From IMG/VR virus record IMGVR_UViG_2879742664_000008: a stretch of 34,192 nt of DNA; one strand, written 5' to 3'. The stretch comes from a virus. Its lineage: Duplodnaviria; Heunggongvirae; Uroviricota; Caudoviricetes. Shown here one piece after another: positions 1,362 to 7,300 of the stretch (positions are counted from its first letter, which is position 1; every line of letters begins with the position of its first letter). The position numbers were made by a program.

Positions 1362-4300
1362 TGACCACTTCATATTCCGTTTTGCCTGTGTGTTGAATAA
1401 TTCCACTGCAGTTATATAAAATCGGTAACGGCTGGAAATCATTCAATACTCGCACTATCGAAAGTTCACCAGCCAACCGCAGCACGTCCTGCATACGTCG
1501 TGTCTGCGGTTTTTCTTTTTCGCTTACATTGTGTCTGGTTCTTCCGGCCACTCAATATCAGGTGCAGTTGATGTATCAACACGGTTCAGCAACACCCGAT
1601 ACTTCTTCTAGGCTTCCAGCAACGAGTTTTCTTCCTCCGTTGCGATCTCCAGATCTACAGCATCCTGAAGTGGCGCAATATGCTCACTGAATTCCTGGAT
1701 GTAGAACTGTGTGGTGACGGTCTTCCAGACATTCAGCTCCTGCTGTATCGAAGCATACCAGGCTATTTCAATATCGCTATGCTGCGGCAGCATTTAACCC
1801 CTTGTAATTCATCGCCATAATTGATTTAATTCACAAATAAGGTAATGACTCCAACTTACTGATAGTGTTTTATGTTCAGATAATGCCCGATGACCTTGTC
1901 ATGCAGCTCCACCGATTTTGAGAACGACAGTGACTTCCGTCCCAGCCTTGCCAGATGTTGTCTCAGATTCAGATTATGTCGCTCAATGCGCTGAGTGTAA
2001 CGCTTGCTGATAACGTGCAGCTTTCCCTTCAGGCGTGATTCATACAGCGGCCAGCCATCCGTCATCCATACCACGACCTCAAAGGCCGACAGCAGGCTCA
2101 GAAGACGCTCCAGTGTGGCCAGAGTGCGTTCACCGAAGACGTGCGCCACAACCGTCCTCCGTATCCTGTCATACGCGTAAAACAGCCAGCGCTGACGTGA
2201 TTTAGCACCGACGTAGCCCCACTGTTCGTCCATTTCAGCGCAGACAATCACATCACTGCCCGGTTGTATGCGCGAGGTTACCGACTGCGGCCTGAGTTTT
2301 TTAAGTGACGTAAAACCGTGTTGAGGCCAACGCCCATAATGCGTGCACTGGCGCGACATCCGACGCCATTCATGGCCATATCAATGATTTTCTGGTGCGT
2401 ACCGGGCTGAGAGGCGGTGTAAGTGAACTGTAGTTGCCATGTTTTACGGCAATGAGAGCAGAGATAGCGCTGATGTCCGGCAGTGCTTTTGCCGTTACGC
2501 ACCACGCCTTCAGTAGCGGAGCAGGAAGGACATCTGATGGAAATGGAAGCCACGCAAGCACCTTAAAATCACCATCATACACTAAATCAGTAAGTTGGCA
2601 GCATTACCCACAAATAAAACTATAACATGGTGAAATTAATGAAAAAAAACACAGATGATGGGGCTAAAATTTACACACCAATTACCCTAAAGCTTTATGA
2701 CTGGTGGGTTTTGGGAGTATCAAATCGGCTTGCATGGGGATGTCCTACAAAGGAACACCTTCTTCCACACTTTCTGGAACATTTAGGTAACAACCATCTG
2801 GATATTGGTGTTGGAACTGGGTTTTACCTTACTCACGTACCTGAGAGTAGTCTGATATCTTTAATGGATTTGAACGAAGCTAGCCTGAACGCGGCATCTA
2901 CAAGGGCTGGGGAATCAAAAATTAAACATAAAATTAGCCATGATGTTTTTGAAACTTATCCCGCGGCGTTACATGGTCAATTTGATTCCATTTCCATGTT
3001 TTACCTTCTTCACTGCCTGCCTGGAAATATATCTACAAAAAGCTGTGTAATACGCAATGCGGCGCAGGCCTTAACTGATGATGGAACTCTATACGGAGCC
3101 ACAATTCTTGGCGATGGAGTTGTGCACAATAGCTTCGGTCAAAAACTGATGCGCATTTACAATCAGAAAGGCATCTTTTCAAACACAAAAGATTCCGAAG
3201 AAGGCTTAACACATATACTCTCAGAGCATTTCGAGAATGTTAAAACCAAGGTTCAAGGTACTGTAGTAATGTTTTCTGCTTCAGGGAAAAAATAGCATCC
3301 AACCGCAGCACGTTCTTGCTTAAGACGTGCTACGGTTTCCTTTACGATTTGGGGTTGCGACTTTACCTCTATTGATAATGCATTCCGGCAGAACATTCAA
3401 ATATGAACGTACGATATTTAACTAACCGAAAAACAAAATATAGCACAGGCGAGACATTTACCATCTAAGAAAATAGTATCGTTTTTTTACAGTTAAATCA
3501 ACATCACTTCCTTAAAATGAAAACAATAAATTTCAATCCTGAAACATTTTATTTTAGCTTATTATTTCCCAGTATCACATTTTATCAGGATATCCTTCTG
3601 CGAGGTTATTATGCTTCCTGTAAATAATCCCCCCCTATCCACTGGAAACGTCTCTTTTTACAGAACTACATCAATCGACAATGTTCACAATAATTATCTC
3701 TCCGAATGGGTTGAATGGACTAAAAACAGCATTTCCGGAGAAAACAGGGAAACTGCTTTTACCCGGCTCCAATTATGTCTGGAGAACAGTGAAACATCGT
3801 TGGACTTATCTTGTTTAGGTCTCAGATCTCTACCACGATTGCCTGACAATCTTGATGAAATTAATGTAAGCAATAACCAACTATCAATGCTCCCCGAGCT
3901 ACCAAGGGCATTGAAAGAACTGAATGCAAGCAGTAATCAATTATCTGCACTTCCTGAATTACCAGTGTCGCTGGAATATATAAATGTGAGTGATAACCAT
4001 TTGTTCGCACTTCCTGAATTACCTGCGTCACTAGAATATATTAACGTAAGTGACAATCACCTGTCTGTACTTCCGAGGTTACCAATGTCATTGGAATTAC
4101 TTGATGCAGCCAGAAATGCTTTGGAAGTAATACCAGATTTTCCAGAAAGAGATGATCATATTATAAGAATATTCTGGCTTAATCAGAACCGGATCACGGC
4201 AATTCCGGAAAGCATACTTGGCCTCAGTTCTGATAGCGTTGTCAATCTTAGAGAAAATCAACTATCTCCCAGAATAATGCAAACTTTGTTACAACAAACC

Positions 4301-7300
4301 GCCCAACCGGACTACCACGGCCCGCAGATTTACTTCTCCATGAGTGACGGACAACAGAATACACTCCATCGCCCCCTGGCTGATGCCGTGACAGCATGGT
4401 TCCCGGAAAACAAACAATCTGATGTATCACAGATATGGCATGCTTTTGAACATGAAGAGCATGCCAACACCTTTTCCGCGTTCCTTGACCGCCTTTCCGA
4501 TACCGTCTCTGCACGCAATACCTCCGGATTCCGTGAACAGGTCGCTGCATGGCTGGAAAAACTCAGTGCCTCTGCGGAGCTTCGACAGCAGTCTTTCGCT
4601 GTTGCTGCTGATGCCACTGAGAGCTGTGAGGACCGTGTCGCGCTCACATGGAACAATCTCCGGAAAACCCTCCTGGTCCATCAGGCATCAGAAGGCCTTT
4701 TCGATAATGATACCGGCGCTCTGCTCTCCCTGGGCAGGGAAATGTTCCGCCTCGAAATTCTGGAGGACATTGCCCGGGATAAAGTCAGAACTCTCCATTT
4801 TGTGGATGAGATAGAAGTCTACCTGGCCTTCCAGACCATGCTCGCAGAGAAACTTCAGCTCTCCACTGCCGTGAAGGAAATGCGTTTCTATGGCGTGTCG
4901 GGAGTGACAGCAAATGACCTCCGCACTGCCGAAGCCATGGTCAGAAGCCGTGAAGAGAATGAATTTACGGACTGGTTCTCCCTCTGGGGACCATGGCATG
5001 CTGTACTGAAGCGTACGGAAGCTGACCGCTGGGCGCTGGCAGAAGAGCAGAAATATGAGATGCTGGAGAATGAGTACCCTCAGAGGGTGGCTGACCGGCT
5101 GAAAGCATCAGGTCTGAGCGGTGATGCGGATGCGGAGAGGGAAGCCGGTGCACAGGTGATGCGTGAGACTGAACAGCAGATTTACCGTCAGCTGACTGAC
5201 GAGGTACTGGCCCTGCGATTGCCTGAAAACGGCTCACAACTGCACCATTCATAATCACATCGCATAAACCACAGACCGGACTGACTCCGGAAAAACAGAG
5301 GCCCGCCCCCGGGCCTCCCCGGATTCATCCGTTTCCCTGTTCAGCCTGACAGCACGCCCCCGCGGCCGGATGACAGACTCCGCTTCGGTAAGCAAAGCGG
5401 TCTTCTGTGATTCCGCCAGTTGCGGCTTATTCATTACTCAACGTCAAACGCCCGAATTGAAGCCAAATCATCCAGACCGCTCAGCTCCTCTTTCATTTCA
5501 CGCTGACGGCGATAAATCTCATCGTTGCGATCGACCTGCGCCTGCACCATTGCTGCCGCCAGTTCTTCCAGTTCCGGCATCGACAGTTTCACCTGCTGAT
5601 TATCGGCATCGCTCCACGCCATATGTGTTTGTGCTGTGACAGATTTTGCCAGCATGACTACCGGGGACAGGCGGCCCAGTGAGTCGGGACCAGCATTCCA
5701 GATACGACCGTTCCATTCAAACGTGAACGGCTTCGCCTCCTGTTCTGCGCGCCATGCTTCAATTTCCTGACGTCTGGCCTCTCTGGCCGCTTCCAGCATT
5801 TCTGGTGTCACAGTGAATGGGGCTATCTCACCCCATTTGCCGCTTTGCAGTTCCTGCCAGATTTGCTGACCCGTCGGAGCGACATCATCAGCGGTGGCTG
5901 TGTAGGGGACTGCCTGGTCCCTGTCGTCAAAAAAAACGTCACAGTCTACTGCGCCACTTTCGGTATAACGGGGATTAATGATTTTTTTAATTTCCACGGT
6001 GCATTCCTCACGATGTGCGAATAAAAAGCCCGGGCATTGCGCCAGAGACATGTGCATCCGGCCCCCCGGACAGGGCGCAATATGACCCCGGTAATGAATG
6101 CTCTGAACATCCCGTAATGAAAAATTGTGGGGATGCTATATACGTTCCGGTGGGAGTACTGGGCACTGAAATCCCCACCGGTCCCAGTCGTGAGCCTCTG
6201 TATGACTGCCCCCTGACAAGTCTGATGACTTTATCACCGTCAGCTTCTCCCTGGTACGCAGCAATAATCAGCCCGCCAATGTCAGGGTCTCCCCATCTGT
6301 TGCGGACAGAGCTCGCCACGATTCTGTAAATAATATCTTCTGTGGTTATATTTATTTTCACCCAGCCAGTCAGTCTGGATATGGGCCAGTAGCAGTAGCG
6401 GGTGTGATAAATGGGGCCGTTAATGCCGTAAAAAGTAAGGGATTTGGCTCTGTACCGCGGTTCTGTTGTCTCAGGGCGTGCATCAGTCCACCGGATGCTG
6501 AGCACCCCTTCAAACCGTGTGTCGGGTATGATGATGTCGTAGGGGCCAGCAACGGAATATTCACCTGGCAGCGCATTCCTTACCCAGGCCAGGAAATCAC
6601 TCTTAGTGTCAAAACGGATAACATCTTCAGGCAGAAAAGCACACCCAAAGCCGAATGCGCCGGGTATCGCCAGACGGCCTTTTGTCCGGTCGTAAATGTC
6701 GCTCTGTGCTTCCATCGTGGCCGCACTTTTCAGCCCCAGATTATCCCGGGACTTCTGTTGTGCCTTTTCGCCTGCTGCTGCGATTTCTGACAGATGGTTA
6801 GCCATTTTCAGAGTGCCGGTCAGCGCAGCATCAATGTCATTTTTGGCCTGTTCTGCTGCGCGGGCATAACCTGCGGCTGCCGCCACATCCTGCGCCGTCT
6901 GCTGTGCGTTTCCGGCTGCGGCCCCGGCGCTCTGCTGCGCCTGCGCCACCATTTCCTCAAAGCGTTTGACGACATCCGGCTTCAGGTCGCCTTCATCGGG
7001 GGCAGTCAGAAAGTCATTCAGCGTGCCGGGCTTTGAGTCGTCGTATACAGCAATGTCGCCAACACAGTACTCGTCGCGCCAGTCCCGTTTCAGATACACG
7101 CAATATTTTCCGACCTGTGCCTCAAACGAATATTCACCGTTATTTCCGGTCACTACATCAGCCCTGGTACGCATCACCACTTCTGAGGTGTTTACACGGG
7201 ATTTCAGAATAATCTGGCATCCGGACATGGGGATGCCTGCGCCATCAGTCAGCGCACCTGATATCACTACAGACATAGTTTTTCTCGCGATAAATTAAAT

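Follow-up and report, generated by a model that had tools for sequence, protein, structure and literature searches.

A methyltransferase gene in front of ipaHe in a Shigella prophage: probably ybcY-type cargo and a neighbour, not a partner, of the effector gene

The 34,192-nt stretch of DNA considered here (IMG/VR virus record IMGVR_UViG_2879742664_000008, Caudoviricetes; the whole stretch is called the window below) carries prophage DNA in which a gene for a class I S-adenosylmethionine (SAM)-dependent methyltransferase lies upstream of ipaHe, the gene of a type III secretion system (T3SS) effector. Judged from its sequence, the methyltransferase gene is the Shigella copy (orthologue) of ybcY from the DLP12 prophage of Escherichia coli K-12, and it is already known and annotated: as ybcY, as PHROG 2132, and in RefSeq as 'class I SAM-dependent methyltransferase' (WP_000239881.1). 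Identity and context taken together make it likely that the gene is ybcY-type prophage cargo, a neighbour of ipaH and not its partner. It should accordingly be read neither as an IpaH effector partner nor as a sign of joint arrival: the methyltransferase appears as a standing resident of the prophage cargo site, and ipaHe as a gene placed there later. The two genes and the regulatory site between them are:

2627..3295, plus strand: class I SAM-dependent methyltransferase, YbcY family / PHROG 2132; open reading frame (ORF) intact, 222 aa; probable start ATG 2639
3611..5254, plus strand: ipaHe (class 3; IpaH2022/IpaH2202 type), T3SS effector and E3 ubiquitin ligase; intact, 547 aa
3476..3492, plus strand: MxiE box GTATCGTTTTTTTACAG; exact consensus match, 118 bp upstream of the ipaH start codon and facing ipaH

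A preliminary description of this DNA had reported a class I methyltransferase ORF with the motif LDIGVGTG, 315 bp upstream of ipaH on the same strand, and both points hold. The motif forms residues 58-65 of the 222-aa ORF, which scores above the Pfam gathering thresholds of Methyltransf_12, _23, _25 and _11 (all generic class I models), and the gap between its stop at 3295 and the ipaH start at 3611 is exactly 315 bp. PHROG 2132, whose function is annotated as unknown, matches the protein with E 1.2e-155, residues 5-222 aligning onto positions 1-218 of 218. Because the homologues, mostly 218 aa long, and the PHROG 2132 profile begin at residue 5 of the window ORF, and because a GGTGA lies 5 nt 5' of ATG 2639, we place the real start at this ATG, which probably gives a coding sequence of 2639-3295 and 218 aa. 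The window protein differs from WP_000239881.1 by two residues, I19L and T110P, both at positions that vary in the family, and the gene differs from that allele by 4-5 nt in 669. The same WP_000239881.1 allele is common to both enteroinvasive E. coli (EIEC) ipaHe loci, O157 ATCC 43889, VE-T10 and the free lambdoid phage 2G7b. Literature searches on ybcY, on WP_000239881 and on ipaH combined with methyltransferase and prophage turned up no functional or experimental work on the family. RefSeq also carries a 45-aa 'nucleocapsid protein' or 'hypothetical protein' antisense to the 3' end of the methyltransferase gene (locus L002, 6630-6767; locus L013, 6632-6769), an ORF that is probably a spurious call.

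We compared window positions 2609-3610 with 5,426 complete E. coli genomes by megablast. Matches were found in 3,838 of them; almost all had 97-99.4% identity and were confined to the first 727-730 bases, and in an evenly spaced listing full-gene matches persisted to at least rank ~3,700. The methyltransferase gene is present, at 97% DNA identity or more, in ~70% of complete E. coli genomes, K-12 and O157 among them, with no ipaH nearby, and the full gene also occurs in 14 temperate Escherichia phage records; in phage 2G7b it is flanked by the tail-fibre genes on one side and by an alpha/beta hydrolase gene, ompT and int on the other. A K-12 derivative has its hit at 577.6 kb, within DLP12; that copy is frameshifted, with a tail-fibre-assembly remnant on either side and appY and ompT alongside; from the K-12 map we take this gene to be ybcY (b0562). 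The match extends into the ipaH leader in only nine genomes, all EIEC, and full ipaHe is found in nine E. coli genomes (EIEC), with the methyltransferase in front of it in 9/9. The pairing is one-sided: ipaHe always has the methyltransferase upstream, and the methyltransferase almost never has ipaH downstream. The gene is therefore widespread in non-pathogenic E. coli and unlinked to ipaH, K-12 ybcY included, and the presence of a near-identical allele in so many genomes that lack ipaH and the Mxi-Spa T3SS, as well as in free phages, argues against the joint acquisition with ipaH that the preliminary description had proposed.

The downstream gene is a class 3 ipaH by all of its features. Its product matches Pfam NEL (E 6e-77) and LRR_TTSS, and scores 563.9 bits against a cut-off of 550 with NCBIfam IpaH_Shig; it has the NEL domain, the leucine-rich repeats (LRRs), the length of 547 aa and the 315-nt upstream region with an MxiE box, and the gene is 99.3-99.6% identical to genes annotated ipaHe in EIEC. 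In 127 Shigella assemblies class 3 (ipaHe/ipaH2202) has 547 aa, is MxiE-box positive and has a modal upstream intergenic region of 315 nt (PMC9046306), and IpaHe is IpaH2022 of strain 301 (PMC9320238). By these features the pairing is conserved, both in Shigella and in the nine EIEC genomes.

A scan of the window for the MxiE consensus GTATCGTTTTTTTANAG, allowing up to three mismatches, gave a single match, at 3476-3492, and none upstream of the methyltransferase gene. The box lies downstream of that gene, between it and ipaH, and ipaHe has its own MxiE box and AT-rich leader. The methyltransferase thus lacks two marks of a T3SS effector, an upstream MxiE box and a restriction to bacteria with the cognate T3SS, since it occurs in ~70% of E. 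coli, in free coliphages and on Klebsiella plasmids. The earlier suggestion of an effector-associated role is hard to uphold for a gene that has no MxiE box and is found in ipaH-free E. coli and free phages, and we infer that the methyltransferase has no mechanistic tie to IpaH or the T3SS.

The surroundings of the two genes agree with a position in the prophage cargo region, distal to the tail-fibre genes, as had been described. The features that define it are:

1608..1793, minus strand: tail-fibre-assembly (tfa) remnant, counterpart of K-12 tfaX; PHROG 2341, E 5.6e-39; left part of a 990-bp module
3301..3337, plus strand: hairpin, -18.4 kcal/mol (RNA fold), directly 3' of the methyltransferase gene; right end of the module
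5434-6057, minus strand: DUF4376-type tail-fibre accessory gene, convergent with ipaH
6008-7276, minus strand: tail-fibre gene, convergent with ipaH; PHROGs 1141 and 2636 cover this gene and the accessory gene
1417..6876, no strand assigned: shared block of ~4.7 kb not counting IS1, with the tfa remnant, the methyltransferase gene, ipaHe, the DUF4376 gene and the 3' part of the tail-fibre gene
Slot between the hairpin and the tail-fibre accessory gene, empty: K-12, VE-T10, F5656C1, phage 2G7b
Same slot, holding general-stress, ferritin-like and Mn-catalase genes: O157
Same slot, holding ipaHe: EIEC, Shigella, this window

The conserved unit is 990 bp long in EIEC FDAARGOS_944 (locus L001, 7738-8727) and corresponds to window 1569-1840 plus 2609-3335. 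It comprises the tfa remnant, a divergent promoter spacer, the methyltransferase gene and the hairpin, and occupies the distal end of the prophage, with the tail-fibre genes to one side of it and the attachment site to the other. In all E. coli loci examined, a feature annotated 'tail fiber assembly protein, incomplete' precedes the methyltransferase gene by ~150 bp on the opposite strand, and downstream there is a tail-fibre-assembly or tail-fibre pair that runs convergently; the window has this YbcY / PHROG 2132 prophage synteny, with its tfa remnant (which also gives weaker matches to the tail-fibre-assembly PHROGs 105, 136 and 188) displaced beyond an IS1.

Similarity to ipaH-free loci stops at query position 727-730, that is at window ~3335-3338, just past the hairpin and before the ipaH leader. 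Because of this boundary we propose that ipaHe entered a pre-existing cargo slot, and the same boundary speaks against a joint arrival of the two genes. The hairpin element (3296-3339), which is the 43 bp that directly follow the stop codon of the methyltransferase gene, is found in 2,154 E. coli genomes, and an 84%-identical copy follows a dinI-like gene upstream of ipaHd (locus L021, 4658-4702); it looks like a terminator, or a recombination joint, that prophage cargo units share at their borders. Other ipaH classes are likewise followed by the DUF4376 gene and have no methyltransferase, as with ipaHd after the dinI-like gene and the related hairpin, so that the slot can be filled by ipaH genes that came without it. 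The tail-fibre and DUF4376 pair (5434..7276) follows several ipaH classes, and copies of at least 95% identity were found in only 10 EIEC genomes, at up to seven places per genome.

In EIEC FDAARGOS_944, 4,685 bp at 99.87% identity are present in two unrelated prophages (blastn of locus L001 against L015), one with a Mu/P2-like baseplate at zinT and the other lambda-like (gpJ, Lom) at btsS. The ipaHe locus can thus be described as a 990-bp module inside a 4.7-kb block, a block that has transferred between prophages of no close relation by way of tail-fibre homology. The window gene is probably a free-standing 'moron', an accessory gene carried by temperate phages of E. coli.

The preliminary description had also pointed to the AT-richness of both genes. 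The values for guanine plus cytosine (GC) content are:

Methyltransferase gene: 40.2% GC
Methyltransferase-ipaH intergenic region: 34.3% GC
ipaH 5' (LRR) half: 39.7% GC
ipaH 3' (NEL) half: 54.1% GC, above the window mean
Whole window: 50.0% GC

The claim stands for the methyltransferase gene and for the 5' half of ipaH, and fails for the 3' half. The shared value of ~40% would fit a common AT-rich donor, but AT-rich homologues occur elsewhere, in Enterobacter (39% GC against 50.5% for the locus) and on a Klebsiella plasmid (37% against 47%). Low GC is a trait of the methyltransferase family in several hosts and not a signature of joint arrival with ipaH.

The native upstream region of the methyltransferase gene is occupied by IS1, as had been noted, and the insertion is flanked by a 9-bp duplication. 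The features of this region are:

1841..2608, minus strand: IS1, 768 bp; insA/insB on the minus strand; terminal inverted repeats
1832-1840 and 2609-2617: IS1 target duplication CACAAATAA, 9 bp
1794..1827, plus strand: native methyltransferase promoter region, with a promoter-like site and a -35 hexamer
1794-1821: promoter-like site TTAACC-16-CATAAT, from a consensus scan of the window and the uninterrupted EIEC locus
1822-1827, plus strand: -35 hexamer TTGATT of the predicted ybcY promoter; hexamers placed by reading the sequence
2621..2626, plus strand: -10 hexamer TATAAC of the predicted ybcY promoter, read from the sequence

In K-12, genomic SELEX (systematic evolution of ligands by exponential enrichment) located RpoD holoenzyme and H-NS in the ybcY/tfaX spacer, for which a ybcY promoter TTGATT-17-TATAAC is predicted (PMC3946193). 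In the window IS1 lies in the spacer of this predicted sigma-70 promoter, between its -35 and -10 hexamers, and ends 18 bp before ATG 2627; the TTAACC-16-CATAAT site is likewise severed from the gene, and insA/insB are oriented away from it. The uninterrupted EIEC sequence has both ybcY hexamers, with TATAAC abutting ATG 8019. Because IS1 splits the predicted promoter, the window copy is probably poorly transcribed, orphaned by the insertion, and would make a small case of insertion sequence-driven gene silencing in Shigella; the native ybcY-type gene, for its part, would be silenced by H-NS. IS1-free sequence is found in EIEC FDAARGOS_944, in S. flexneri SFBU1023 and in ECMA0423. The last two carry the methyltransferase-ipaHe pair with the methyltransferase promoter intact and have a 1.33-kb insertion in ipaHe (loci L028, L029 and L030; window ~4215-4223, with an apparent 9-bp overlap), which is the reverse of the damage in the window, where the promoter is hit and ipaHe is intact. 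The two genes have therefore been damaged independently in different lineages, and an intact ipaHe behind a split methyltransferase promoter is a further point against the idea that they work together.

What the enzyme does is best approached from its fold and its conserved residues. The protein has the seven-stranded alpha/beta class I fold, with profile scores above curated thresholds, and an AlphaFold (AF2) model with a mean predicted local distance difference test (pLDDT) of 90.4 gives this fold with two N-terminal lid helices. Motif I, (D/E)xGxGxG, is present, with D59, G61, G63 and G65 invariant in 36 homologues, as is the acidic ribose-binding residue, the invariant D81 in LMDLN at the end of a predicted strand (76-81). 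In all, 58 columns are invariant across the 36 homologues, down to 55% identity, and many of these columns are aromatic, His or Cys residues outside the SAM site (the conserved set has Y16, Y24, W26, W27, W37, H129, C130 and H167), which suggests a conserved and specific small-ligand pocket. The best sequence match in the PDB is juvenile-hormone acid methyltransferase (JHAMT), with E 5e-6 over part of the protein only, and searches of the PDB by sequence and by profile gave nothing beyond weak partial matches to JHAMT and UbiG. We could not find any membrane or hydrophobic segment in the protein (maximum Kyte-Doolittle value 0.95, 19-residue window), and the isoelectric points of the family, 6.8-9.4, do not discriminate between types of substrate. 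Membership in PmtA, RquA or CpaM is excluded by NCBIfam scores of 16.6-19.1 bits against cut-offs of 175-390.

These data are consistent with a soluble cytoplasmic enzyme acting on a small molecule, probably by O-methylation of a metabolite or toxic compound, and we give this reading about an even chance. The enzyme may thus methylate a small molecule in the bacterial cytoplasm, O-methylation in the manner of Tam, JHAMT or DhpI being the most plausible reaction, and a lysogen would gain a minor metabolic or detoxifying benefit from it.

An action on a host-cell macromolecule (rRNA, tRNA or protein) would also suit a cytoplasmic class I enzyme with generic profile matches. It is unlikely, as small-molecule enzymes head both the fold and the sequence matches, the protein consists of one 218-aa domain with no RNA-binding or substrate-recognition extension, and its conserved set rich in aromatic, His and Cys residues would be typical of a small-ligand pocket.

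That the enzyme serves the phage, by modifying its nucleic acids (DNA or RNA) or a component of its virion or tail fibre, or through anti-defence or superinfection exclusion, seems less probable still. Its E. coli gene always lies between prophage tail-fibre-assembly genes, it is retained in viable temperate phages, and PHROG 2132 is a phage protein family. However, the gene is on the strand opposite to the late operon and has its own predicted sigma-70-type promoter, as is typical of cargo expressed in the lysogen, and close homologues occur singly on chromosomes or plasmids, in surroundings that contain no phage. A DNA methyltransferase, whether part of a restriction-modification system or orphan, was considered and rejected: direct reading of the 222-aa sequence found no motif IV, (D/N/S)PP(Y/F/W), and the single 218-aa domain leaves no target-recognition domain. 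Among the PADLOC defence models none scored above threshold, the sole match being a sub-threshold mad2 (E 0.0028).

Outside E. coli, Salmonella, Enterobacter and Yersinia have homologues of 55-65% identity, each a solitary gene on the chromosome among unrelated genes that are not of phage type; these contexts, free of any T3SS, are again at odds with a joint origin with ipaH. Lone homologues with unrelated neighbours likewise occur in Pantoea, Aeromonas and Acidobacteria. A profile search of 1.84 billion representative proteins gave 417 clusters at E<=1e-30, reaching Acidobacteria and fungi, whose source names are just 'UbiE-like' or 'SAM-dependent methyltransferase'. Across eight non-phage neighbourhoods we could not find any conserved partner gene; a Zn-dependent alcohol dehydrogenase gene within 5 kb in three of the eight (Enterobacter, Pantoea, Acidobacteria) was judged too weak a lead. 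Nor did the longer family members have any informative fusion domain, save an RCC1 fusion in a gene model from a lichen metagenome-assembled genome. A homologue on Rhodococcus fascians pFiD188 was also followed and dropped, as it is not in the fas/mtr cytokinin locus as annotated.

Some distant homologues lie on plasmids, beside virulence loci among other places. In K. pneumoniae pFRPDR_1, one of the 220-kb hypervirulence-type plasmids, a 64.7%-identical copy (locus L022, 8995-9648) lies ~540 bp from rmpA-rmpD-rmpC-peg-344 and divergent from it; 603 Klebsiella plasmids carry a homologue, and the Klebsiella gene is on record as a marker associated with liver abscess, on grounds of linkage alone (PMC5126061). 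In the vap island of R. equi (P. equi pVAPA1643; locus L020, 6103-6717) a 31%-identical copy is divergent from an operon of a LysR gene (virR), a major facilitator superfamily gene and vapH. A further copy, 52-53% identical, is found on 28-36 kb plasmids of Erwinia amylovora and E. pyrifoliae. The simplest reading of the recurrence beside virulence loci is the hitch-hiking of an AT-rich mobile cargo gene. We hold it highly improbable that the YbcY family is instead a recurrent virulence-linked enzyme acting on a host-derived or stress-related small molecule, with the pairing to ipaHe due to selection and not to hitch-hiking. Least credible of all is that an AT-rich donor supplied the methyltransferase gene and ipaH together and that the two cooperate, the methyltransferase being another T3SS substrate, modifying IpaHe or acting on a host target: the fixed 315-nt spacing across Shigella and EIEC, the common mobile block, the similar base composition and the virulence-linked relatives would all suit it, but the occurrence of the gene in ipaH-free genomes, the break at the hairpin, the single MxiE box and the ipaH loci with no methyltransferase tell strongly against it.

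Several points weigh against the reading that we prefer, that of a ybcY-type cargo enzyme which merely adjoins ipaHe. No characterised relative is closer than ~20% identity, and for this reason small-molecule O-methylation rests on the fold neighbours and a JHAMT-like FY(L/T)LH motif. The pairing with ipaHe is strictly conserved in Shigella and EIEC and both genes move in the 4.7-kb block, so that a functional link specific to this lineage is conceivable. As for transcription, the promoter is a prediction, and a hybrid promoter with an IS1-derived TTGGCA, 20 nt and TATAAC is possible, though poorly spaced.

The remainder of the window is chiefly a degraded prophage and its flanks. At the left edge an IS3-family orfA (1-327, minus strand) adjoins an IS3-family transposase ORF of 279 aa (525-1364, plus strand), and these elements together with IS1 at 1841-2608 stand in place of the zinT-msrQP chromosomal flank of EIEC FDAARGOS_944. 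The prophage from 8390 to 22581 is badly eroded relative to its EIEC counterpart: a Mu Gp48-like baseplate gene (9042-9632) is followed by an IS3-family transposase gene (10210-11028) and directly then by an early-region DUF968 gene (11069-11827), an arrangement from which we conclude that genes for tail, head and lysis are absent. Further on come a second IS1 (~13773-14276) and an exonuclease VIII-like gene (18967-21177), and a short integrase ORF (21820-22464) abuts tRNA-Ser(cga) (22492-22581). To the right of the prophage the core chromosome (22636-29910) carries an M90 peptidase gene (mtfA-like, 22636-23472), tRNA-Asn (23573-23648) and an inverse autotransporter gene (YeeJ-like, 2007 aa, 12 Big_1 repeats, 23887-29910).

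Among known systems the closest is YbcY of K-12 itself (DLP12, b0562, WP_000239881.1, PHROG 2132), which is the same gene at 98-99% DNA identity and has the same flanks: a tfa remnant ~150 bp upstream on the other strand, the hairpin downstream and the same predicted promoter hexamers. The two copies differ in that the K-12 gene is frameshifted whereas that of the window is intact, in the splitting of the window promoter by IS1, and in the presence of ipaHe in the window between the hairpin and the tail-fibre accessory gene. Another member of the same family (BAH65943.1 of pK2044; WP_011251259.1) is encoded beside rmpA on hypervirulence plasmids of K. pneumoniae and has 64-67% identity over 97% of the protein. 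Like the window gene, its gene is AT-rich, stands alone and neighbours a virulence locus on a mobile element, in this case a plasmid and not a prophage.

The small-molecule class I enzymes JHAMT (7ebs/7ec0), UbiG (4kdr), DhpI (3ou2), Coq5 (4obw) and PmtA (8ys9) share with the window protein the Rossmann-like seven-stranded fold and the N-terminal helical lid, as well as motif I, the acidic motif II residue and a JHAMT-like FYxLH segment after strand 4. However, identity to them is just 11-21%, with sequence E-values of 5e-6 at best and partial coverage; by sequence the window protein is outside the JHAMT, UbiG, DhpI, Coq5 and PmtA families, and no substrate can be transferred from them.

At the level of the locus, the parallel lies with the exchangeable effector loci of enterohaemorrhagic E. 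coli (EHEC), reportedly described by Tobe et al. in 2006 as cargo slots distal to the tail-fibre genes of lambdoid prophages. There too the region past the tail-fibre genes holds variable cargo, which differs from strain to strain and includes T3SS effector genes with their own regulation. The difference is that the effector in the present slot is an MxiE-controlled IpaH of the plasmid-borne Mxi-Spa system, and not an Nle or Esp effector dependent on the locus of enterocyte effacement (LEE).

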